Shown in pieces: positions 1 to 41,117 of a DNA stretch of 57,829 nucleotides; position 1 is the stretch's first letter; the number at the start of each line of letters is the position of its first letter. The notes below the pieces were generated by a model, which was not told where the DNA came from, ran no database searches, and saw nothing but the letters and a program-made list of their open reading frames with translations. Origin of the DNA: a virus. Lineage: Duplodnaviria > Heunggongvirae > Uroviricota > Caudoviricetes. The stretch spans positions 1-57,829 of the IMG/VR virus record IMGVR_UViG_2822641076_000001; one strand, given 5' to 3'. Both the position numbers and the translations under genes were made by a program.

Positions 1-3000
1 GGGGGAGGAGGCGGTGGTTGTGGTTTCGTTGTTACTGGTGGTTTTGTCTCAATCGGTTTTGGTTTCTCGATGTTGCTTCCACTAATACCATTGCCATTGC
101 CTTCATATGGATTATGAATTTTAGCATTATTAAGCTGATTTACTTTATCAATCGCTTTGTCGATAGTGAAAATTAGATTCTCAGAAATCGACTTACTAAA
201 TTCCTCCAAATTGTTTCTTGCTTCCTCAGAGAACTCACCGATTTTAATCGAGATATCTCCGAATTTCCCTTCCATAACTTCGTTCATTGTATCGTTCATT
301 TTTTCTAATTCTTTACGAATTGTTTCAAAATTCCCTTTGATGAACTCGTCACGAAGGTCAGCCCAGTACTTTTCGTTATCTAGAATTTTGTTATAGTGTT
401 TCTCAATCTCTTCTGCTTCCAAATCAAGTTTTTCAATCTTGTCATTGTAAGCGTCATCTTCTTGTTGTTTTCTGTCTTCTAGAGCTTGGATTTCCGCATC
501 TCTTTGGTCTTCCAATGCTTTCTGTGCTAATTCTCTCTCACGCTCTCGTACCATGTTGTTAATTTCTGTTTCTTTTTCAGCCAATTCTCGTAGTAATTGT
601 TCTTTTTTCTTTCTAGCATCTAATGAATCGTCGAGAGACAGTAGAGAAATATGTTTTAACATTTCTGAACGTTCTTTTTGTAATGCACCAAGACTAGAGT
701 TGAAGTCTTCCTCTTCTTTATCTCCTGTCATTAGTTTCAATTTGTCATCGTATAATTTTGTTATTTTAGCGATTTCTTCATCGTAGTTTTTCAATTTTTG
801 ATTATGAGCTTTTTCAAGAGCTTTCTTCTCTTCTTCAATTGCTTTAAAGGCAATCTCTTTAGCTTTCTCATAATACTTACGCATCTCTTCAATTGCTTGG
901 TCAGCTACGCTTGCACGAATATCCTTAATCTCTTTTTGAGTTTGAAGGATACTGATTGTAACATCACGCCAAGCTTTTTCATTTGTCATGATTTGCTCGT
1001 TTAGCTTTTCAACAATTTCCGCATTGCCTTCGTTTAATTTTAGTTGTTTTTGTAACTCATCGTTTAGATTTTCGTAATGTCCTTTAATTGTTTCTAACCA
1101 GTTCATCTTGTCAACATTTAAGTTAACAATCTCACCGATTTTGTCTTCATCTGTTAAATTGATAATCTCTTTTTGGAAATCTAGTTTCCCTGTTTTGTAG
1201 TGTTCGATTTTCTTAACAACTTCTTCATACTTATTGATAATCTCATCTAAGTAATTCGTAATTGATTCGTTCATCTTTTCACTTACAGAGTTCTTTAGAT
1301 TCTCAATTTCAACTCTCAACGATTGAATTTGTTTGATGTTTCCGTCTAAATCTTGAGCTAATTTGTTATATCTTTCACGTTGTTGTTCTGTATGAGAACT
1401 AATATTTTGAAGTGTAGATAATTCATATTGAAGTTGACTATTTTTATTGATAAGTGTTTGTAATTGTTTCTCTGATTCTTTGCGTTTCTTCTCTTCGATT
1501 CCTGCAATTTGAATTAAAAGCGTTCTGTATTCAGCCGATAATTCTTTAACACGATTCATATGGGCTTCAAGAATACCTGCTTGAGTAGATAAATCACCCA
1601 TTAATCTATCGAATAAATCAGGCTGAAATGCCTCTTGCATAGATTCGCTAGTTCGACTGTAAGCTAACATTGGAGGTGTTTCATATTCACCATAGAGCGT
1701 TTGTGAATCTTTCCAGTCATCATATGAATGGTCAACATCGAAGCTTGAACGTACTGATACTGGTTGCACTGCTGAGACAGACATTGGAGCCATTGGAGGC
1801 ATTGCATAGAACTTAGGCATTATCTCCATACCACTTAGGCTCGTTGGAGCTGAGGCGAATGAATAGTATACAGGGGAATCCACACTAGCCATTCTAGGAG
1901 CAGGAGCAGATTGCATTTCATTCTTCTTACCTGTCCAGTCTTTCCACTTCTCTACAGCACTGTTATAGATACCTTTGAAGACTCCTGAGAAAGTTTCCCA
2001 TGCTCTCTGAGCCATAGATGCACCCTCTTGACCTTCTTGACCAGCTTTCTTCATTGCTTCTCCTGCGTTTTTCGCACCATCTTGAACACCTTTACTTCCA
2101 GTCTCGGCATCCTTTTTCATGTTATCCATAACTTCTTTTGTTTTGTCACCAAGTTCTTTTTCACTCTCTTGGTTCTTCTTGTTGGCGTCAACTCGTTGCT
2201 TTACACCTTCACCATGTTTTTGTGTATATTCACTACTTTTAATAACCATACCGTTTGATGTAATCGTTACTGTATCAAGCATTTCTTTATCTTTGTCGAT
2301 ATTCGCTTGAACTTGGTCTGCTTGTAACTTACCATCTACAATACAATCACCGTATGCATCTCCTAAGATGTTAATTGCATCTTCAAGTGCCTCTGTTTCC
2401 GATTTATCTAGCTGTTTACCCGAAACAAGTTTTGCGTTTGCATCTTCAAATGTTGCTAATGCATCACGCCTCTTACCAATTTCCTCATCAGTTTTTCTGA
2501 TATAAGCATCTTGTTGAAGGACTTCTTCCCTTGAAGCATTGTTTTTATTGAAAATCGCTTCAATTTCTCTCATTCTTGCTTTTTCACTCTCGGATAAATC
2601 AGCAATATTCTTTTCATATAAACCTGCGTATTCTTTTTGCAAACCTTGTTCTTCTCTAATTGCATCCATGTTCAATTCAACTGCGCCAGTCTGCTCATTG
2701 TAACCTGTTACAAGGTCAGGGAATTGTTTTGCTAACTCTTCACGTACTTGTTTATATTGTCTTTCTTGTTTTTCATTTCGTGAAGTCATTTGTCCTAATC
2801 TATCAGAAGAGGCAATTAATTCTTCGGTTGATTTTACTTGGTCTGCACTCATACCAGTGATAGATTCTAGTGTACCTGCTAAATCTGAACTCTTTTTATC
2901 AACATCCTCAATACTATCCGCTAGAGCTTTGTTGTCTCCTGCTCCGATTTTAGCTTCTTTAGCTTCTTTAGCAACTGCATCAGCCAAGTTCTGAACCATA

Positions 3001-6000
3001 GCTTTTGCTTTATTAGAACTGATACCTTGCCCTTCTAGTTGTTTTGTTAATTCTTTTGCTTTGTCACTATTCATGCTGAATTTTTTACCACTGTCTACTA
3101 ATCCACCAACATAGTCTTTCAATTCTCTTTGAACACCTCTCGTAGCCTCGGCTTGTTTATCAAAGCCTTTTGAAGCTGTTTGAGATGCGGAGAATGAATT
3201 TCTTAAAACAGGTGGAAGCTTTGTTAAAGCTTGTCCATACGAAGTTGCTTCTTTAGTGACTTTCTCTGTATGTTTCTCTAAATCAAATCCTTTTTTACTC
3301 CAATCAGCAGATGCGTTTTTGGCTTGAATCATTTTTTGAATTAGCTTTTCGTCTTCTGCTGTTAAATCACGAATTGAGTTTGTTTGGTCTTTGTTTTTCT
3401 TTTTAGCTCTATCTCTTTCATTTGTTAGTTTAACTTGTTCTTTTGCTACACCTAAGATAGCTGTACCGCTTTGTTTAAATGCTTCTTTAACTTTTTTCTC
3501 AGATTCGTACAATTTCATGTTAGCTTCGGCAATCTCTAGAGTGTCTTTTTTAACTGTAGCTCCCATTCCCGAACCAATTACTTTTCCTTCTTTTTTGTAA
3601 TCATAATCTTTCTTTTTCTTATTGTAGTCATCTAAGACATCTGAAAGTTTTTCGTTTGATTTCTTTTGCTTTTGTTGCGCTCTTTCTAGAGAGATTTTCT
3701 TTTCTTCTTTGGCAAGGGCTTTTGCAAGTTCTAACTCTTCCTTAACAGCTTCAACACTTTTCAGTCGAGCATTACCCTGTGCATCAATTTCTTTTGTAGC
3801 AGTAGGTAATAATTTGTTGATTTTATTTTGAACTTCTTCTAATTTTTTTGCATCTTTTGGACTCAAAGCTTCTTTTCGACTTCTAGAAAGTAAATCATAA
3901 TCTTCTACAAGGTCTTCTAATTCAGAACCATGATTTCCAATTGCATCACTTGCTTCTTCTACACGTTTGTTGAACTCTTCTTGTTCTTTTTTCATTTTAG
4001 CGAAGTAGTTTATTGTTTTCTCAATAGCGACTCCCAACGCCATAAAAGCAATAGTCGGAAGAATTGCTGTACTCATAAAGCCTACTAGCCCCATGAATCC
4101 TGCTTTCATTAATCCAATACCTTTTGTTGCGATATTCGTTGCCATTGCTACACCGTTGATTTTAGCTGTAGTTGTAGCTAAAGCCATGTTAGCCATGTTC
4201 ATCTTTGCAACATCTAGCATTCCTGCTTTACCGTTCTCTACTTTTGCTTGTTTTACTTTTTGAATCGCATCATGATATTTCATCATCTGCTGTGCGCTTT
4301 GTTCGTAGTATCTATCAAGCTTTTTAGTTGCCTGTGCATTGATTGCTTGTCCTAATTTTGTTTGAGCATCCGCAAGTTGAACAGTTGCCTGTCTTGCTCT
4401 TCCTTGAGTAGCTTCAAGACGTTCCATTCTTGTAGTTGCCTGCTCAATTGCTCTATAGTTGAACCCTGTGAATTTATTATCAAGCTTTGGAATACCATGA
4501 ATAGCTTTTGCCATTCTTCCAAACATACCAACAGCCTTTTCCCCACGTTGAACCAATTGTGAAGTAGCTTGGTCTCCATAGTTAGCTTTCATTTTGTATG
4601 CTACTAAACCTGCACCAACAAGACCTAGTACAGTACCTAATACACCGAAGTTCTGAGCAAGAGCTGATACACCTTTCATCAGACCTTGTGTCAAGTCTAA
4701 AGCCAACATGAATCCACCATTTAAGAATGCATCACCGAATGCTAATGCCATCTCAGATAATGAGTTCTTTAGTCGGTTAATTCGTGCTTCTAAAGATTTT
4801 TGATACTCAGCATTCTCACGCATTGCTGAACCTTGAGAGTTTAATGAGTCATTTGTCGCTTTAACAGCTAAATCCCAGTTATTCATTAAGGCTAAGAAAC
4901 GAGTTAAATGGTTACGTCCTGCTACTTTAACGGCAATATTTTGTCGTTCCATATCAGTCATGTATTTCCATTTACCTGCTAAATCACTAAATACATTCTC
5001 TACTTTACGTGCATCTCCACCTGCTGTACGAATAGAAACACCTACACCTTTCAGTGCTGTCTCTACATCGGGAAGTGTTGTTACACGAGAGTAAATTGTT
5101 TTTAAGGAGTTACCAATTTGTTTACCTGATTCCATCGTTGTCGCACCAATCGCTGTTACGTGTCCAAGTAAACTATCAATATCTACTCCAAACGTCTTAG
5201 CTGTTGCTGACGCTTTCATCATTGCCTCTGATAATTGTTGAGTCGAAATCGAGTTATTGTTATCGACTTCGTTCATTTTATCTACTAGGTCAATAGATTT
5301 TTCTACTTCGAAGTTGTAACCGTTCAGCGTTGCGATTAATGATTTCATCGCATCATCTGCTTTTAAGTCAGATACGTTCGAAGCTATCGTCGCTGTACGA
5401 GCTAATGAAATTTGTTGCTGTTCAGATAATTGGTCATAAGAACGACTAATCTCTGAGATTGTGTTTAATACATCTTTCGCACTGTTACCAAGCTCAGATG
5501 CCATCTTAATACCACCCTCGAACAGAGCGTTAGTATCTACGTCGTCACTAGCAACACGACGTAAGTCTGTCATGGCTTTATCTAATTCTACGATTTCTTT
5601 CGTTAAAGTTTTGATACCTTGAACAGAACCATAGAATAATGTTGTACTAGCAAACCAAACTGGCACACGTTCTAAAGCGATTTTTAACTGCTCTAAAACA
5701 CCTAAGTTTTTGTTTGCATTGTTTCTAAGTTCGCTACCCATACGAGTAAGCTCTCTAGATGCATGGTTTAATACATAAGCAAACTCTTGAACACTCTTTT
5801 TACCATCGTCGATACGAACTTTAAACTTAGACATTTGCTGTCCATCTCGACCGATTTCGTTGCTCATACTAACAATATTAGCTTTAGCTCCGTGCATTGT
5901 TCTTGATAGATTTTGAACGTCTCTCTCGAAGGATTGAACGTTATTTTTAAAACTACCAAAATTAATCTTATCTCCAACGTTGATTGTTTCTCCTGCTTTT

Positions 6001-22965: not shown

Positions 22966-23040
22966 TGGCACGCCCTCTAGGACTCGAACCTAGAATAGAA
23001 GTTTTGGAGACTTCTGTGTTACCAATTACACTAAAGGCGC
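22966..23040 (-). tRNA. tRNA-Trp(CCA)
   Basis: Cloverleaf, anticodon arm GAAGT-CTCCAAA-ACTTC, encoded CCA. Confidence 0.93.
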
Positions 23041-23100
23041 ATGACACCTTGCCGTTTATATTTAGTAGGAACGGCTAGGGTAGAAACCTACATACATTTG

Positions 23101-23515
23101 AAAAACTCACACAAGAAGTGCAGGAAACTCATGTGAGGTTGCACTTTTTCATATTTAGTTGTCTATAATGTTCGCATAAACCATCGTCAACGAACTCTAT
23201 CGCTCCCACACTTGCCTTCAATATGAGAAACAGAGCGACTTTCCAATGTCTACCGTTGGTGGGTTGGTATCCTTGTCCCACATCTCTTAGTAATTAAGCT
23301 TTTTTTAAGACTCGAACCGTTAATACGCTAGCATGTATTGTCACGTATTCAAGCGTGATAGCTACCTCTTCTATCCTCAACGGTGACTGCGATGATAGCA
23401 AGCAGATAAGACAATCTCTTATCGGGATGGATAATGGTATCTTTAAATCGTCCCCCATTCGGGAATGATGCAGTTGCCTTTGCACCTGACTAATTTTTTA
23501 GGCTTAGTCCACCTT
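23101..23515 (-). ncRNA. Unassigned structured RNA between tRNA-Ser and tRNA-Trp
   Basis: Many hairpins (GACTAA/TTAGTC, GATAAGA/TCTTATC, TCACG/CGTGA, AAGTGCA/TGCACTT) and no credible CDS. Confidence 0.4.
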
Positions 23516-23518
23516 TAA

Positions 23519-23608
23519 TGGAGGGAGAGAGGCTCGAACTCTCGCTACCTTTAAATAGGTACTAACAGTTTAGCAAACTGTCCTCTTCACCAACTTGAGT
23601 ACCCCTCC
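23519..23608 (-). tRNA. tRNA-Ser(GCT)
   Basis: Class II cloverleaf with a long variable arm, ACAGT-TTGCTAA-ACTGT, no encoded CCA. Confidence 0.9.
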
Positions 23609-23640
23609 AAGATAAAATCCAATTCCGTAAAAACAGAACT

Positions 23641-24458
23641 GGTCTTGCGTAGGCTGAGATTAAACCTCGCATTGAGTGCCTTTAGAAAGATTATATCTTC
23701 CTCTCTTATCCACGTAATCCTCTTTTGGAGCAATTACGTATCACTCACAACCGCACGTTTTAATTAGTCGCTGTGCATTCTGCGACCTGTTACACTACTA
23801 CTCAATAGCTCCTATTCTGTCAACGTTGCCACGCTATTAATCTCTGCTAAGAGAACCATGCAATTCACTATCAAACAATCAGAGTTTTGCGAACTCATCA
23901 TGCTCCTCATTCAACTTTCGTTGTGGGGATTTAGGTTGCCTTCGTAATGTAAGGAGACAGGCTTTCGCTTGTATGAATTTTAATTAGTCATATATTAATC
24001 ATCTTTTTAGATTACCATATCTAATACCTGTATTAGTCTCTGTGACCGAAGACGTGCTGTCTCAGTGGCTTCGTAATCTTTTGGATTACAAAATACCACA
24101 CGCCTTCATGTTCTTTCGCCAACTAGCTACTCAAACCGTAATCAAAGTTACTTTGGCTTTCGACCATTTCGCTTTCACTACTGACTGTCGCCCTTGCTTG
24201 TTAGACTCGGACTGTACAATCTCTCGATTCACTCTCGTTTCTTCATTACTTTAGCGTGGAGTGTATTGGTGCTAACCAATACTGCTACTACATCGTTGAC
24301 CTCGTAGCGTTTTCTCCGTAATTTCACGAAACTATCACCATCATCACAATGATGACTTAGGAGTGTCGATTGTGCTTGGATTGACCGTTTACACGGTGGC
24401 AACTTGTCACATTGCCTTTACGCAACTCACGTTACGCTATCAGAGCCAAGCCTCGAAG
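23641..24458 (-). ncRNA. Large structured ncRNA, ROOL-like (alternatively GOLLD)
   Basis: ~800 nt without a credible CDS inside a phage tRNA array. Dense hairpins include two with CAAAAG loops. The 3' segment AAAGGC...TAATCTCAGCCT resembles ROOL as recalled (unverified). Confidence 0.6.
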
Positions 24459-24464
24459 TAAAGA

Positions 24465-24537
24465 TGCACCTTGTAGGGTTCGAACCTACATATAACGGCT
24501 GTTTAGGCGGTCTGCTTTCACTTTAAGCTAAAGATGC
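24465..24537 (-). pseudogene. Degenerate tRNA (mismatched anticodon stem, loop CTAAACA)
   Basis: Intact acceptor (GCATCTT/AAGGTGC), D and T arms. The anticodon arm is irregular. Confidence 0.65.
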
Positions 24538-24552
24538 ATATTGAAGGGAGGG

Positions 24553-24623
24553 AGGAGTTTATCGGACTCGAACCGATTACGCCTTGACTACGCCAAGTGT
24601 TTTGCCTGTTAAACTAAAACTCC
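24553..24623 (-). pseudogene. Degenerate tRNA with a 5-nt anticodon loop (CGTAG)
   Basis: GGAGTTT/AAACTCC acceptor, intact D and T arms, anticodon arm CTTGG-CGTAG-TCAAG. Confidence 0.65.
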
Positions 24624-24626
24624 ATA

Positions 24627-24711
24627 TGGTGGCAGGGGTAGGACTCGAACCTACGAACTCGATTGAGGGGAGATTTACAGTCTCCTGTCATTGCCACTAG
24701 ACTACCCTGCC
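24627..24711 (-). tRNA. tRNA-Tyr(GTA)
   Basis: GGAGA-CTGTAAA-TCTCC, long variable arm, encoded CCA. Confidence 0.95.
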
Positions 24712-24720
24712 ATAATAAAC

Positions 24721-24796
24721 TAGCACCCCTAGAGAGATTCGAACTCCCGACTCACGGGGTAGAAACCCGTTGCTCTATCCACTGAGCTATAGGGGT
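24721..24796 (-). tRNA. tRNA-Arg(TCT)
   Basis: ACGGG-TTTCTAC-CCCGT. The 3' end reads CTA. Confidence 0.9.
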
Positions 24797-24801
24797 AAAA
24801 A

Positions 24802-24876
24802 TGATGTGGTATGAGAGAATCGAACTCTCATCTTCTGATTGGAAGTCAGAAATCATAGCCATTAGACCAATACCAC
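24802..24876 (-). tRNA. tRNA-Gly(TCC)
   Basis: TCTGA-CTTCCAA-TCAGA. The 3' end reads TCA. Confidence 0.9.
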
Positions 24877-24890
24877 ATGCTACAAAACTA

Positions 24891-24964
24891 AGAGGAGAGT
24901 GGGATTTGAACCCACGAATAATAGGGTTGCAACCTACCGTGTTAAGCCTCTTCACCATCTCCTC
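24891..24964 (-). tRNA. tRNA-Cys(GCA)
   Basis: GTAGG-TTGCAAC-CCTAT, U73 discriminator. Confidence 0.9.
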
Positions 24965-24970
24965 ATAAAA

Positions 24971-25123
<153 letters not shown>

Positions 25124-25220
25124 ATAATGGATGCTTGTTTTGATATCATAGGTCAAGCAGAACCTACCGCTTTGCGTACCGAATCGTAGATTAACGACGT
25201 GGAATCGGTAAAAACGTCAA

Positions 25221-25294
25221 TGCCGACTGTAGGAATCGAACCCACGACCTGTTGCTTACAAGGCAACCGCTCTAACCTGCTGAGCTAAGTCGGC
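25221..25294 (-). tRNA. tRNA-Thr(TGT)
   Basis: GTTGC-CTTGTAA-GCAAC. Confidence 0.93.
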
Positions 25295-25299
25295 TTAAA

Positions 25300-25530
25300 G
25301 GAGCTGTTATGTTTTTTACGTGGCGCTACTCCCCTGCGTCCACATCATTCAAGTTTTTCCGTTGCTTGCCAACTAGCTAGCTCCCGTAGTCTAGCAAGAA
25401 TTTTAAAGCCCACGTTTTATGACTTATTGTCACAGGTAGTGGAACACCCATCTTTCCTCTAATCCTATGTAAGCTGTTACCCTCAACATAAGACGACCTT
25501 TCGGAAGGGTCTTTCATCTGCATAATCTGC
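25300..25530 (-). ncRNA. Unassigned ~230-nt structured RNA between tRNA-His and tRNA-Thr
   Basis: Several hairpins and a terminal H-type pseudoknot. No ORF. Confidence 0.4.
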
Positions 25531-25533
25531 ATA

Positions 25534-25604
25534 TCAGCATGGAGAGAATCGAACTCTCATTCATGGATTCACAGTCCACTGCGTTACCATTACGCCACAC
25601 ACTG
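25534..25604 (-). tRNA. tRNA-His(GTG), atypical
   Basis: GTGGA-CTGTGAA-TCCAT. It lacks the G-1/C73 pair (C at -1, A73). Confidence 0.8.
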
Positions 25605-25662
25605 GAAACTAGATACTAAAACTAGGCTAATATCTAGTTTCCAAAGCATGGACTTTGGTCGA

Positions 25663-25736
25663 TTTCCAAGGAAGGCTTCGAACCTCCAAACTCTAGCTTC
25701 AAAGGCTAGTGACTTTACCAATTCGTCTACTCGGAA
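25663..25736 (-). tRNA. tRNA-Gln(TTG)
   Basis: CTAGC-CTTTGAA-GCTAG. Confidence 0.88.
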
Positions 25737-25740
25737 ATAA

Positions 25741-25815
25741 TGGCGGTGCATACGGGATTCGAACCCGTGCTACTTGGTAGACAGCCAAGTGTGTTAACCT
25801 CTACACTAATGCACC
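25741..25815 (-). tRNA. tRNA-Asp(GTC)
   Basis: CTTGG-CTGTCTA-CCAAG, encoded CCA. Confidence 0.95.
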
Positions 25816-25844
25816 ATAAAAGCATCCACTAAGGATGCGAAATA

Positions 25845-26087
25845 TTAAATACTAACTAAACCTTGAATATTCTTTCTTAAAACATCATTCTCAGCTTTAC
25901 TTGTTTTTGCATCTTCTACAAAGGATTGTAGATTAGCAATTTCAGCCTGAGCTTCCTTGATTACTTCGTCTAAATGTGCATCAGAAGCATCAATATCTTC
26001 AATCGCTTTTACAAATACTTCTTGGGCAGATTGTGTTTTAGCTTGAGCTTTTTTAATTCTTTTACCGTGTAAATCTCTTTTAATCAT
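25845..26087 (-). CDS. 80-aa coiled-coil protein inside the tRNA array
   Basis: RBS AAGGGGAAGGGA before MIKRDLHGK. The longer ORF in the track overlaps tRNA-Pro. Confidence 0.7.
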   Translation of the reverse strand: MIKRDLHGKRIKKAQAKTQSAQEVFVKAIEDIDASDAHLDEVIKEAQAEIANLQSFVEDAKTSKAENDVLRKNIQGLVSI

Positions 26088-26121
26088 AATTCCCTTCCCC
26101 TTTTTCTCCGTTTTAAAATAA

Positions 26122-26195
26122 TCGGGATGGCAGGACTTGAACCTACGGCATCCACACCCCAAATGTGGCACTCTACCAAACTGAGCTACATCCCG
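26122..26195 (-). tRNA. tRNA-Pro(TGG)
   Basis: CCACA-TTTGGGG-TGTGG. Confidence 0.93.
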
Positions 26196-26196
26196 A

Positions 26197-26250
26197 TGGA
26201 AGCAGGAGGTGAGTCACGACCTCATAAACAACCCGTTAGTTGCCTCCTGC
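26197..26250 (-). ncRNA. 54-nt tRNA-like RNA ending in CCA
   Basis: GCAGGAGG/CCTCCTGC stem, two short hairpins, 3' end TTCCA. Confidence 0.55.
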
Positions 26251-26251
26251 A

Positions 26252-26327
26252 TGGCGCACCTAGATGGATTCGAACCACCAACCAAAGAGTTAACAGCTCT
26301 CTGCTCTACCATTGGAGCTATAGGTGC
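26252..26327 (-). tRNA. tRNA-Asn(GTT)
   Basis: GAGAG-CTGTTAA-CTCTT, encoded CCA. Confidence 0.95.
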
Positions 26328-37981: not shown

Positions 37982-38012
37982 TTTTAAACATCTCCATTTT
38001 GTAAATTATTTT

Positions 38013-38078
38013 TGGTTTGTCTCATCAGCATGTAAAGAACCACTTTACATGGACGGGACTCGAAAGTCCCGTTTCGAC
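38013..38078 (-). ncRNA. Type II hammerhead ribozyme 1
   Basis: GTC-GAAA-C-GGGAC(TTTCGA)GTCCC-GTC^-CATGTAAAG(TGGTT)CTTTACATG-CTGATGA-GAC-A-AACCA. Full core, GUC cleavage triplet, and loop I pairs with the 3' tail. Confidence 0.92.
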
Positions 38079-38132
38079 TTGTGGGAACGTCTTCCCTACA
38101 TTTGTTATTATAAGTGATAACAAATGTATATG

Positions 38133-39057: not shown

Positions 39058-39152
39058 TTCCTCTTTTCTGTATAATAGTTTCTTCGTTAACCTAATGTTA
39101 TTATAAATGATAACTAATTCGGATGTCAATCATTATTTTTTACATTTGTAAT

Positions 39153-39812
39153 TTAAATTTCAAAACTTAATTGCTCCAAGTCTCTTGCATACATTCGAGC
39201 CGTTTGTTTTAGCACACAAACCGCCTGTGACAATGAAATACTTTTAACGCCAATTCTACTAATATAGAATTTTAATTCTTTTGCTCGTTCATCCCAGTAT
39301 TGTAATTTAATTCCGTTTAAATTACCGTCTCTTTCAAGACAAACTTTAATTTCCTCTTTTGTAGCAGGTAGCAAAGGAATTAAAGTTTTTAAACCGATTC
39401 CATTTACAACATTTGTGTAAAATTCTTCGTGGCTCATGATTTCCCCAGTTTCCTTGACCATCATAGAATTAACCTTGTTAAACTCTTTTAAATTCATTTT
39501 ATTTTCCACCTTTTCATTTTTGATTAATGTATCATTGATTCTTTCATTTATTTGGTCAAGAGCTTCCCAAAACCATTCAGTACCTCGTAATTCTGTACGA
39601 GTTTCATTTTCTTTAGCTATCCAGTTTTTAATGAACGTAGTATCAGTAATTAGAGACCACTCTTTATTTAAAGTGCGTTCCACATATGCTTGAACCTCTT
39701 CTACAGTCTCGCCAATCTGTGAAGCGATTGACACCGTACCATCCGTACATTTAATTAAGAAAGAGTATTTGTTTAATGTTTCAGCTTGTGTCAGTTCCAT
39801 TTTAATTTCCAC
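39153..39812 (-). CDS. Hypothetical protein
   Basis: 219 aa with its own promoter and RBS AAAAGG. Confidence 0.7.
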   Translation of the reverse strand: MEIKMELTQAETLNKYSFLIKCTDGTVSIASQIGETVEEVQAYVERTLNKEWSLITDTTFIKNWIAKENETRTELRGTEWFWEALDQINERINDTLIKNEKVENKMNLKEFNKVNSMMVKETGEIMSHEEFYTNVVNGIGLKTLIPLLPATKEEIKVCLERDGNLNGIKLQYWDERAKELKFYISRIGVKSISLSQAVCVLKQTARMYARDLEQLSFEI

Positions 39813-39907
39813 CTTTTTATTTTATTTTCGAACCTATAGTTATTATAAATGATAACAATTGCGGATGTCAATCATTATTTTTTACATTTGTGAAATCACT
39901 TTCTTTT

Positions 39908-39974
39908 CGGCTTGTCTCATCAGTATGAATAGAGCCACTATTTCACAGACTGGGAATTATTCCCCAGTTTCGAC
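39908..39974 (-). ncRNA. Type II hammerhead ribozyme 2
   Basis: GTC-GAAA-C-TGGG(GAATAATT)CCCA-GTC^-TGTGAAATAG(TGGCT)CTATTCATA-CTGATGA-GAC-A-AGCCG. The pseudoknot covaries with copy 1. Confidence 0.9.
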
Positions 39975-39999
39975 CGTTGATTTATGAATTTTGTACTTA

Positions 40000-40287
40000 T
40001 TATTCGTGTGTTTCCGTGTATTTTACTTCCATCCAAGTATAATGTTCGGCTAAATTTTTATGAATCTTTTTCGCCTCGGCTTGTGCCTTCGTTTCTTCCT
40101 CTTGTTTGTATATAATTACAACCATGTCCTCAAGTAAATCCTCATTACTATCTAAAAGGTTAACCATTAAATCAAAACCGCTTTCGTCTTCGTCTCCATT
40201 CCAGTTGAAAAGTTCGACTTGTAATTTGCTCACTCTTGATTCATTAATCTTTTTCTTTACTTCTCTCAAATCCATATTACGTTCCAT
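40000..40287 (-). CDS. Hypothetical protein
   Basis: AGGAGATGTTTAAAAATG leader before MERNMDL. Confidence 0.72.
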   Translation of the reverse strand: MERNMDLREVKKKINESRVSKLQVELFNWNGDEDESGFDLMVNLLDSNEDLLEDMVVIIYKQEEETKAQAEAKKIHKNLAEHYTWMEVKYTETHE

Positions 40288-40452
40288 TTTTAAACATCTC
40301 CTTTGTTGCATCTGTTGTTATTATAAATGATAACAACTTTATATGTCAACACTTATTTTTGTAGTTGAGAAAAGGTGTACTTCCCTCAACTACATTTAAA
40401 ATTCTATCAGATAATAAATCCACTGTCAATGCATTATATGAAATTTGTTCAT

Positions 40453-40734: not shown

Positions 40735-41117
40735 TTTCAAACATCTCCTTCGTTGCGTCTTTTGTTATTATAAATGATAACAAAATGACATGTCAACAAC
40801 TAATTTCATTATTTGTTTCACTTGTATTCCGTTTGTTTATTACGTCCCTAATGTTACAGAAAAATCAGTGCACTGTCAATGGATTTTATGAATTATTTTT
40901 AGTTTGTAGTTTTCAATCACGCATATATATAGAAGAAACTCGAAACTACCATATAAAGAGCATTTCGACTTATATTGTATTTTTTATTCGTAATTATCTG
41001 ACTATAATCGCAGCAAAAACCAGTAAACAAAATCAAAATAGAGACAACAGGAAGAATGAGAGACAGAGCGATGACATAGGCGAGCGGTACGGCTCGTTCA
41101 TTTTTGACACTCAGTTC

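Follow-up and report, generated by a model that had tools for sequence, protein, structure and literature searches.

A second type II hammerhead ribozyme between a stop codon and a consensus promoter in a phage gene array

Several hammerhead ribozymes are known to flank genes in prophages, where processing of long phage transcripts has been proposed as their role (Perreault et al. 2011, PMC3088659). Type II hammerheads located near phage-like genes of Desulfovibrio cleave in vivo (PMC8782182), and a 2019 review describes the purpose of hammerheads in bacterial and phage genomes as still not concretely defined (PMC6765202). We analyzed a stretch of 57,829 nt from a Caudoviricetes genome (IMG/VR record IMGVR_UViG_2822641076_000001, positions 1 to 57,829; hereafter, the window) in which one hammerhead copy lies after a promoter and another lies just ahead of one. 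What would a self-cleaving RNA do at the end of one gene when the next gene has a promoter of its own? No new kind of RNA is introduced by this locus: a 2011 publication (PMC3088659) already covered the fold of type II hammerheads, their pseudoknot, and the multi-copy arrangement in phages, and the second copy is unusual only in its placement just upstream of a consensus promoter. Its value is as a compact test case for the purpose of phage hammerheads: two copies of the same subtype, 1.9 kb apart, one following and one preceding a consensus promoter, with no terminators. This value is increased by a related model species, Bacillus subtilis, where work has been done on RNase J1 and on what becomes of 5'-OH ends.

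Anatomy and detection of the second copy

Judged by its sequence features, the element is a genuine type II hammerhead and the second copy in the window (copy 2, Table 1). The conserved core is complete, comprising CUGAUGA, GAA, the A39968-U39949 pair, and C17 within the GUC, and the pairs that adjoin the core are standard (G39916-C39972, U39947-A39924, and A39968-U39949). Along the RNA, the 5' strand of stem II is followed by GAAA, the stem III hairpin, UC, the stem I hairpin, CUGAUGA, and the 3' strand of stem II. This order defines the type II permutation, in which loops cap stems I and III and a short stem II is left open. In the alignment to covariance model R2 (described below), no non-standard pair is marked, and helices II, I, and III measure 3, 9, and 8 bp, respectively; a stem II of just 2 bp is frequent among type II ribozymes (Perreault et al. 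2011, PMC3088659). Loop I pairs with the bases just past stem II over 5 bp, where at least 4 bp is expected of a type II pseudoknot, an interaction required for fast cleavage (PMC3088659). Core, permutation, and a pseudoknot beginning one base past stem II are shared with Rfam family RF02276 (PMC3088659), the consensus of which has UGG as part of loop I and AGCC as part of the tail, as copy 2 does. A sequence-only reading of this DNA had already delimited the element, its pseudoknot, and a cleavage position at 39948/39947; each was re-derived on the minus strand.

Table 1. Positions of the hammerhead copies, the parts of copy 2, and the adjacent genes and promoter in the window.
Feature	Position	Strand	Basis or detail
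Upstream gene, 95 aa, without known family	40000..40287	(-)	ORF; weak PHROG match, no Pfam match
Type II hammerhead ribozyme, copy 2	39906..39975	(-)	Rfam RF02276, model R2, stem-checking descriptor
Copy 2 stem II 5' strand, GUC	39974-39972	(-)	
Copy 2 core G12-A13-A14	39971-39969	(-)	
Copy 2 stem III	39968-39949	(-)	A15.1-U16.1 plus 7 pairs, 8 bp; loop AUAA
Copy 2 predicted cleavage site, C17 (39948) / U1.1 (39947)	39948/39947	(-)	Where the GUC triplet lies with respect to stems I and III
Copy 2 stem I	39947-39924	(-)	6 bp, bulged A, 3 bp; 9 bp in all
Copy 2 loop I UGGCU, 5' half of pseudoknot	39937-39933	(-)	5 bp with 39912-39908
Copy 2 CUGAUGA	39923-39917	(-)	
Copy 2 stem II 3' strand, GAC	39916-39914	(-)	Followed by a single A
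Copy 2 3' tail AGCCG, 3' half of pseudoknot	39912-39908	(-)	One base past stem II
Promoter, consensus sigma-A/sigma-70 type, TTGACA-18 nt-TATAAT	39842..39871	(-)	12/12 match
Downstream gene, 215 aa, without assigned function	39153..39800	(-)	ORF and Shine-Dalgarno; opens the 1896-nt segment between the cleavage sites
Type II hammerhead ribozyme, copy 1	38011..38079	(-)	Cleavage 38052/38051; Rfam 43.2 bits, R2 73.9 bits

The stems of copy 2 are AU-rich. Its nested hammerhead fold is calculated at -16.4 kcal/mol, as against -18.9 kcal/mol for the best nested fold, which spends the pseudoknot strands on an ordinary helix. In copy 1, the hammerhead is itself the fold of minimum free energy (-23.1 kcal/mol). 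An intrinsic terminator overlapping copy 2 was considered and rejected: no U-run follows stem III, and none is predicted.

Comparison of the two copies is informative about selection. Core, stem II, and spacer are identical, in line with the common core noticed earlier, and the helices differ at 11 pairs, 9 on both sides and 2 on one side only, with all 11 still paired. The differences fall in stem III (four pairs, all two-sided), in stem I (five pairs, four two-sided and one a one-sided change from A-U to G-U), and in the pseudoknot (two pairs, one a two-sided change from U-A to C-G and the other one-sided). The sequence-only reading had held that stems I and III diverge while staying paired, that the pseudoknot changes in a compensatory manner (UGGCU/AGCCG versus UGGUU/AACCA), and that this suggests selection on function in both copies. 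These claims withstood closer analysis: none of the nine differing pairs across the two stems is broken, the same pseudoknot covariation recurs across at least 91 distinct phage hammerheads, and selection is supported for the fold in both copies because no difference between them breaks a pair. A larger structured RNA surrounding the hammerheads was also entertained and dropped, as the flanks of copies 1 and 2 are alike in the ribozyme only, and the family's 10 nt upstream vary freely, with a ribosome-binding site usually next downstream.

Standard annotation captures these elements poorly. The Rfam model of RF02276 (Hammerhead_II) aligns to copy 2 over its full length (39905-39975; 31.0 bits, E 3.8e-5 in a 96-nt search), below the curated gathering cut-off of 37 bits, which is a database threshold rather than a property of the RNA; the shortfall is due to the AU-rich stems and the bulge. 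Copy 1 exceeds the cut-off at 43.2 bits. With model R2, a covariance model built from 33 phage hammerheads from which the window sequences were left out, copy 2 scores 65.1 bits (39906-39974; E 4.4e-15) and copy 1 reaches an E value of 2e-17 (73.9 bits); across the whole window, R2 finds no site besides these two at E values up to 1. A pattern of core words and spacings matches 2 sites in the window (copy 2, and copy 1 at 38022-38076) against 0.03 expected. Similarly, a descriptor that checks the stems matches exactly 2 sites in the 153.6-kb phage genome against 0.017 expected per genome, the mean over 60 simulated genomes of matched length and dinucleotide make-up. Chance origin of copies 1 and 2 is thus excluded.

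Neither hammerhead was reported by Rfam scans of the whole window at gathering thresholds, by permissive scans of 901 nt and 5.5 kb, or by an RF02276 family search of the phage's own genome. Given that 96-nt scans recover both copies, these misses are losses to the speed filters rather than absences: both default and permissive Rfam filters drop the two copies once about 900 nt or more is searched, even copy 1 with its 43.2 bits. Because the default filters lost both copies, one of them above the cut-off, annotation of phages from low-GC hosts probably misses some AU-rich type II hammerheads.

Family placement and covariation

Both copies belong to a subtype that can be written as GUC-GAAAC...GUC...CUGAUGA-GAC-AA, in which stem II is GUC/GAC followed by AA. 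The exact subtype occurs at at least 120 IMG/VR viral loci, which include at least 91 distinct sequences with closed stems, and in just 22 stretches, spread over many phyla, among 185,579 prokaryote species genomes (one per species); it is therefore mainly a phage element. None of those 22 prokaryote matches is from Bacillus, making the host group new for this subtype.

Copy 2 agrees with its IMG/VR relatives in stem II, spacer, and core, all identical, and its stem I is also a familiar form. Among the matches listed, the stem I of copy 1 (9 bp with a 5-nt loop) is the commonest, with 25 members, and that of copy 2 (6 bp, a 1-nt 5' bulge, 3 bp, and a 5-nt loop) is shared by 6 other members, which places it third of the 20 forms. 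The bulge is accordingly a recurrent family trait and not a sign of decay, since six other distinct members share it.

Covariation across the family points to a maintained fold. In a 35-member alignment, 97.5% of cells are paired, compared with 72.6% when partners are shuffled, and two-sided changes occur in 17 of the 23 pairs. The subtype pattern fixes stem II and the core, and closed stems I and III were selected for; the pseudoknot is consequently the only covariation test free of selection by the search. There, the mean helix length over the 91 distinct sequences listed is 4.16 bp versus 3.53 +/- 0.06 bp with shuffled partners, and a value as high as that observed arises in 0 of 1000 shuffles. 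Within the 35 phage hammerheads aligned, the pseudoknot helix is 94% paired, with two-sided changes in four of its five pairs. The position that differs between the window copies is C-G in 23 members, U-A in 11, G-C in 1, and unpaired in none, and the words UGGCU/AGCCG and UGGUU/AACCA both recur among subtype members.

Multiple copies also occur elsewhere in the family. At least seven IMG/VR loci hold two co-directional copies of the subtype, 0.3 to 1.8 kb apart. A 36-kb viral contig, IMGVR_UViG_3300044911_003373, carries four co-directional copies in two pairs (0.37 and 0.59 kb apart) and is the densest array among the matches listed. The two copies in the window resemble the hammerheads of Perreault et al. 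(2011) in occurring in phage or prophage DNA, in bracketing one or a few genes in the same direction, and in the role that can be proposed for them; their cleavage sites enclose 1896 nt with four genes.

Family placement relative to genes separates the two copies. In 77 of the 106 non-redundant IMG/VR instances listed (73%), a gene start (Shine-Dalgarno sequence, start codon, and an ORF of 40 aa or more) lies no more than 40 nt past the tail; the same is true of 7.9% of random positions. Since a gene start usually follows the ribozyme this closely, the 3' product of the cut is normally a working mRNA. Copy 1 fits this placement, and copy 2 is atypical in that a promoter intervenes: unlike most subtype members in IMG/VR, it is followed by a promoter rather than by a Shine-Dalgarno sequence and start codon, and it departs from RF02276 in being AU-rich, below the cut-off, and placed before a promoter rather than a ribosome-binding site. 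Promoter adjacency as a family trait was examined and rejected; a near-consensus promoter lies within 150 nt downstream in 2 of 103 instances and upstream in 0 of 103, a count in which only sigma-70-type promoters are visible.

The surrounding gene array and possible functions

Copy 2 sits in an array of small leftward genes. The gene upstream ends in a stop codon at 40002-40000, followed by a second in-frame TAA; the stop lies 25 nt before the ribozyme, exactly as read from the sequence originally, and a further 36 nt separate the ribozyme from the next -35 element. In that promoter, the -35 occupies 39866-39871 and the -10 occupies 39842-39847, the latter inside a GTTAT...ATAAC palindrome. 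The sequence-only reading had assigned this promoter to a gene starting at 39812. The promoter stands, with a match of 12/12, but the gene more likely starts with the ATG at 39800, given that its own Shine-Dalgarno sequence contains the GTG at 39812. Copy 1 occupies the 5' leader of gene 37981-37364, downstream of the promoter at 38136-38107, about 20 nt past a -10 and ahead of the ribosome-binding site.

Promoters are plentiful in this array and terminators are not. Those at 40796, 40349, 39871, 39129, and 38136 match the consensus at 12/12 positions, and four others match at 11/12. No intrinsic terminator is predicted on the minus strand from 40633 down to 35000, so transcripts that read through from one cassette into the next are expected. 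The promoters at 40796, 40349, 39871, 39129, 38711, and 38136 (all on the minus strand) have in common a ACAAATGTAAAAAATAATGA-like box upstream and, covering the -10, a GTTATCATTTATAATAAC palindrome. Another class is marked by CATTGACAGTGG, found at 40429, 38371, and 37198 and, with one mismatch, at 40879. On their sequence elements, the two classes look like operator-controlled sets. In the cassettes at 39129, 38711, and 38371, the same promoter box comes straight after a stop codon without a ribozyme. A GGGAAGACGUUCCC hairpin at 38083-38096 (minus strand) lies between the likely start of the transcript from promoter 38136 and copy 1 and is kept in the closest relative; cleavage of copy 1 would strip both this 5' hairpin and the triphosphate end.

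That relative is a 152.9-kb IMG/VR record with direct terminal repeats in which both ribozymes are base-for-base identical to those of the window and 2028 nt apart; the proteins flanking the ribozymes are 87-88% identical to ours. Identity is not specific to the ribozyme, because a block of about 200 nt around copy 2, aligning window 39830-40000 to positions 2830-3012 of the corresponding locus in the relative, is near-identical as a whole; it takes in some 25 nt ahead of the ribozyme, the ribozyme itself, the promoter, and the ribosome-binding site, as far as the start codon. The gene on the upstream side is unrelated in the relative, where that ORF reads into the ribozyme and has its stop codon within the loop of stem III; downstream, the protein differs over its first ~93 residues and is shared over residues 94-215. 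With flanks that are unrelated or divergent, the conserved block looks like a module at a mosaic junction.

Hammerhead-class cleavage leaves a 2',3'-cyclic phosphate and a 5'-OH, and it cuts RNA without stopping RNA polymerase. We propose that copy 2 is a working ribozyme in a terminator-free early-gene array, where it would cut read-through RNA into defined units, a reading to which we assign a probability of roughly 0.6. Its starting point is what has been established directly, namely the motif, family membership, covariation, and genomic context of copy 2. Transcripts from promoters 40796, 40429, and 40349 would cross gene 40287-40000 into the ribozyme, where stem III would fold before stem I. 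As soon as transcription has supplied CUGAUGA, the AGCCG tail, and between them the 3-bp stem II strand, the pseudoknot of loop I with the tail would fix stems I and II next to each other, and self-cleavage after C39948 would follow, as anatomy and family lead us to infer. Held together by a 3-bp stem II only, the products should part at once, which would make the cut one-way.

The upstream mRNA would then end in the 8-bp hairpin plus GUC bearing the cyclic phosphate, and such a hairpin-capped 3' end could perform the RNA-stability task of a terminator hairpin while leaving the polymerase running. For the next cassette, RNA arising by read-through would carry its new 5'-OH on the base that opens the 9-bp stem I hairpin. 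Because both new ends would be closed by hairpins, a role in generating stable, defined mRNA ends fits the locus; together with copy 1, situated 1896 nt further on, the cut would divide early transcripts and free the stability and translation of each unit from upstream transcription. Within this proposal, in vivo cleavage, what becomes of the ends, and any benefit to the phage are inferred. The suggestion that copy 2 acts as a terminator substitute or insulator is thus plausible at the level of RNA, through a defined 3' end, and fails where stopping the polymerase is concerned: a hammerhead does not halt transcription, so copy 2 cannot replace a terminator for that purpose or for preventing promoter occlusion.

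Two known systems frame the fate of the cut ends. The copy 1 layout of promoter, ribozyme, and ribosome-binding site is that of RiboJ insulators (PMC7536230), which are engineered, combine a hammerhead with a hairpin, derive from a satellite-RNA hammerhead, and have a different permutation from copies 1 and 2. A comparable effect at copy 1 would trim the promoter-specific leader and leave a standard, hairpin-closed 5' end. Copy 2 precedes its promoter, a layout that RiboJ designs do not use. Among synthetic ribozyme insulators, one that was AU-rich did not work in its context (PMC7536230). The Bacillus glmS ribozyme shares the end chemistry and comes from a closely related host genus, and it illustrates how, in Bacillus, the fate of an mRNA can hang on cleavage by a ribozyme (PMC11780869, citing Collins 2007). 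RNase J1 of B. subtilis degrades the 5'-OH product of glmS, and a trimming activity converts 5'-OH ends (PMC11780869); stabilization of the downstream product of copy 2 is therefore not assured. Unlike the hammerhead, glmS has an unrelated fold, depends on a metabolite cofactor, and destabilizes the mRNA of its own gene, whereas no ligand is known for the hammerhead, the 3' product of which has a hairpin at its start.

The glmS precedent opens an opposite reading, that copy 2 erases read-through: RNA released with a 5'-OH would be degraded by the host's RNase J1, leaving gene 39800-39153 to be expressed solely from its own operator-controlled promoter, regardless of transcription from upstream. 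This appears unlikely, although the position upstream of a consensus promoter with an operator-like palindrome over its -10, the lack of a terminator shielding that gene from upstream transcripts, and RNase J1 attack on the glmS product (PMC11780869) all speak for it. The 9-bp hairpin at the very first base of the 3' product weighs against it; structure at the 5' terminus should hinder 5' exonucleases. Furthermore, copy 1 lies downstream of a promoter, and 73% of the listed members lie right before a ribosome-binding site, where the 3' product has to be usable. A tentative extension, which we likewise regard as improbable, would make the two ribozymes natural insulators in opposite layouts, copy 1 standardizing a 5' end and copy 2 condemning read-through RNA to RNase J1. 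If so, the next gene would answer only to its own operator-controlled promoter, and the locus would offer the first defined biological role for a phage hammerhead as well as a design that engineers have not used.

Copy 2 might instead be a passenger or a decaying copy that arrived with a mobile intergenic cassette and is inactive or weak here, without a role of its own. A score under the Rfam cut-off, a hammerhead fold that is not the minimum-free-energy fold, and an atypical position would all be expected of such an element; so would the sharp borders of the block conserved in the relative, with unrelated genes upstream as for a shuffled module, and the ribozyme-free cassettes at 39129, 38711, and 38371 that have the same promoter box. 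We nonetheless consider it quite unlikely. Neutral decay would hit the 13 core bases first, and these, the core-adjoining pairs, and the pseudoknot are intact; all 11 differences from copy 1 keep pairing, and a stem I with this bulge recurs naturally in the family.

The remaining readings assign more specific tasks to the cut, and both are far less credible. In one, the 1896-nt RNA from 39947 to 38052 would be released whole and circularized or joined by an RNA ligase. Co-directional ribozymes do bracket a four-gene segment, and the phage does encode a PF09414-family RNA ligase (genome 127314-127790, plus strand; 103.7 bits; a 297-aa ORF located 70 kb past the end of the window), with a second, weaker PF09414 match at genome 109922-110350. 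RtcB ligates 5'-OH and cyclic-phosphate ends directly, and a PF09414-type ligase needs healed ends. No RtcB is encoded in the phage genome, and the PF09414 ligase is probably linked to tRNA repair; circularization of the segment is unlikely for want of RtcB and because the PF09414 ligase needs healed ends. Three promoters inside the segment mean, moreover, that most of its RNA would lack the 5' ribozyme end, and we give excision and rejoining very little credence. The other makes copy 2 a terminator substitute in the strict sense, with a 5'-to-3' exonuclease entering at the cut, chasing the polymerase, and dislodging it ahead of the promoter so that occlusion is prevented. A strong promoter does have its -35 just 36 nt past copy 2, with no intrinsic terminator, but a stretch of only about 75 nt from the cut to the -35 gives an exonuclease scant distance in which to catch up, a stable hairpin would cap the nascent RNA at its 5' end, and the family context gives no hint of termination, with genes at most 40 nt downstream in 73% of the listed instances. 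We hold this version to be highly improbable. Set beside these alternatives, division of read-through RNA into defined units by a working copy 2 is the reading we prefer.

Phage affiliation and other structured RNAs

The phage is most likely of a ~154-kb, Bacillus cereus group type, judging from DNA comparisons. A near-identity search among named phages gave no match, and a plasmid search gave only one match, of 171 nt, to a B. thuringiensis plasmid. In a search for distant DNA similarity, matches were confined to short gene fragments from phages of the B. cereus group. Two of these phages, Kirov and pW4, have no hammerhead according to model R1.

Two further structured RNAs were found elsewhere in the window, inside an array of 16 tRNA genes (22969-26327, minus strand). 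A GOLLD RNA is present at full length at 23651-24108 (minus strand; 204 bits, E 3e-56), together with a skipping-rope RNA at 23251-23385 (minus strand; 47 bits). GOLLD was described from lake metagenomes and Lactobacillales; unlike those sources, its carrier here resembles phages of the B. cereus group.
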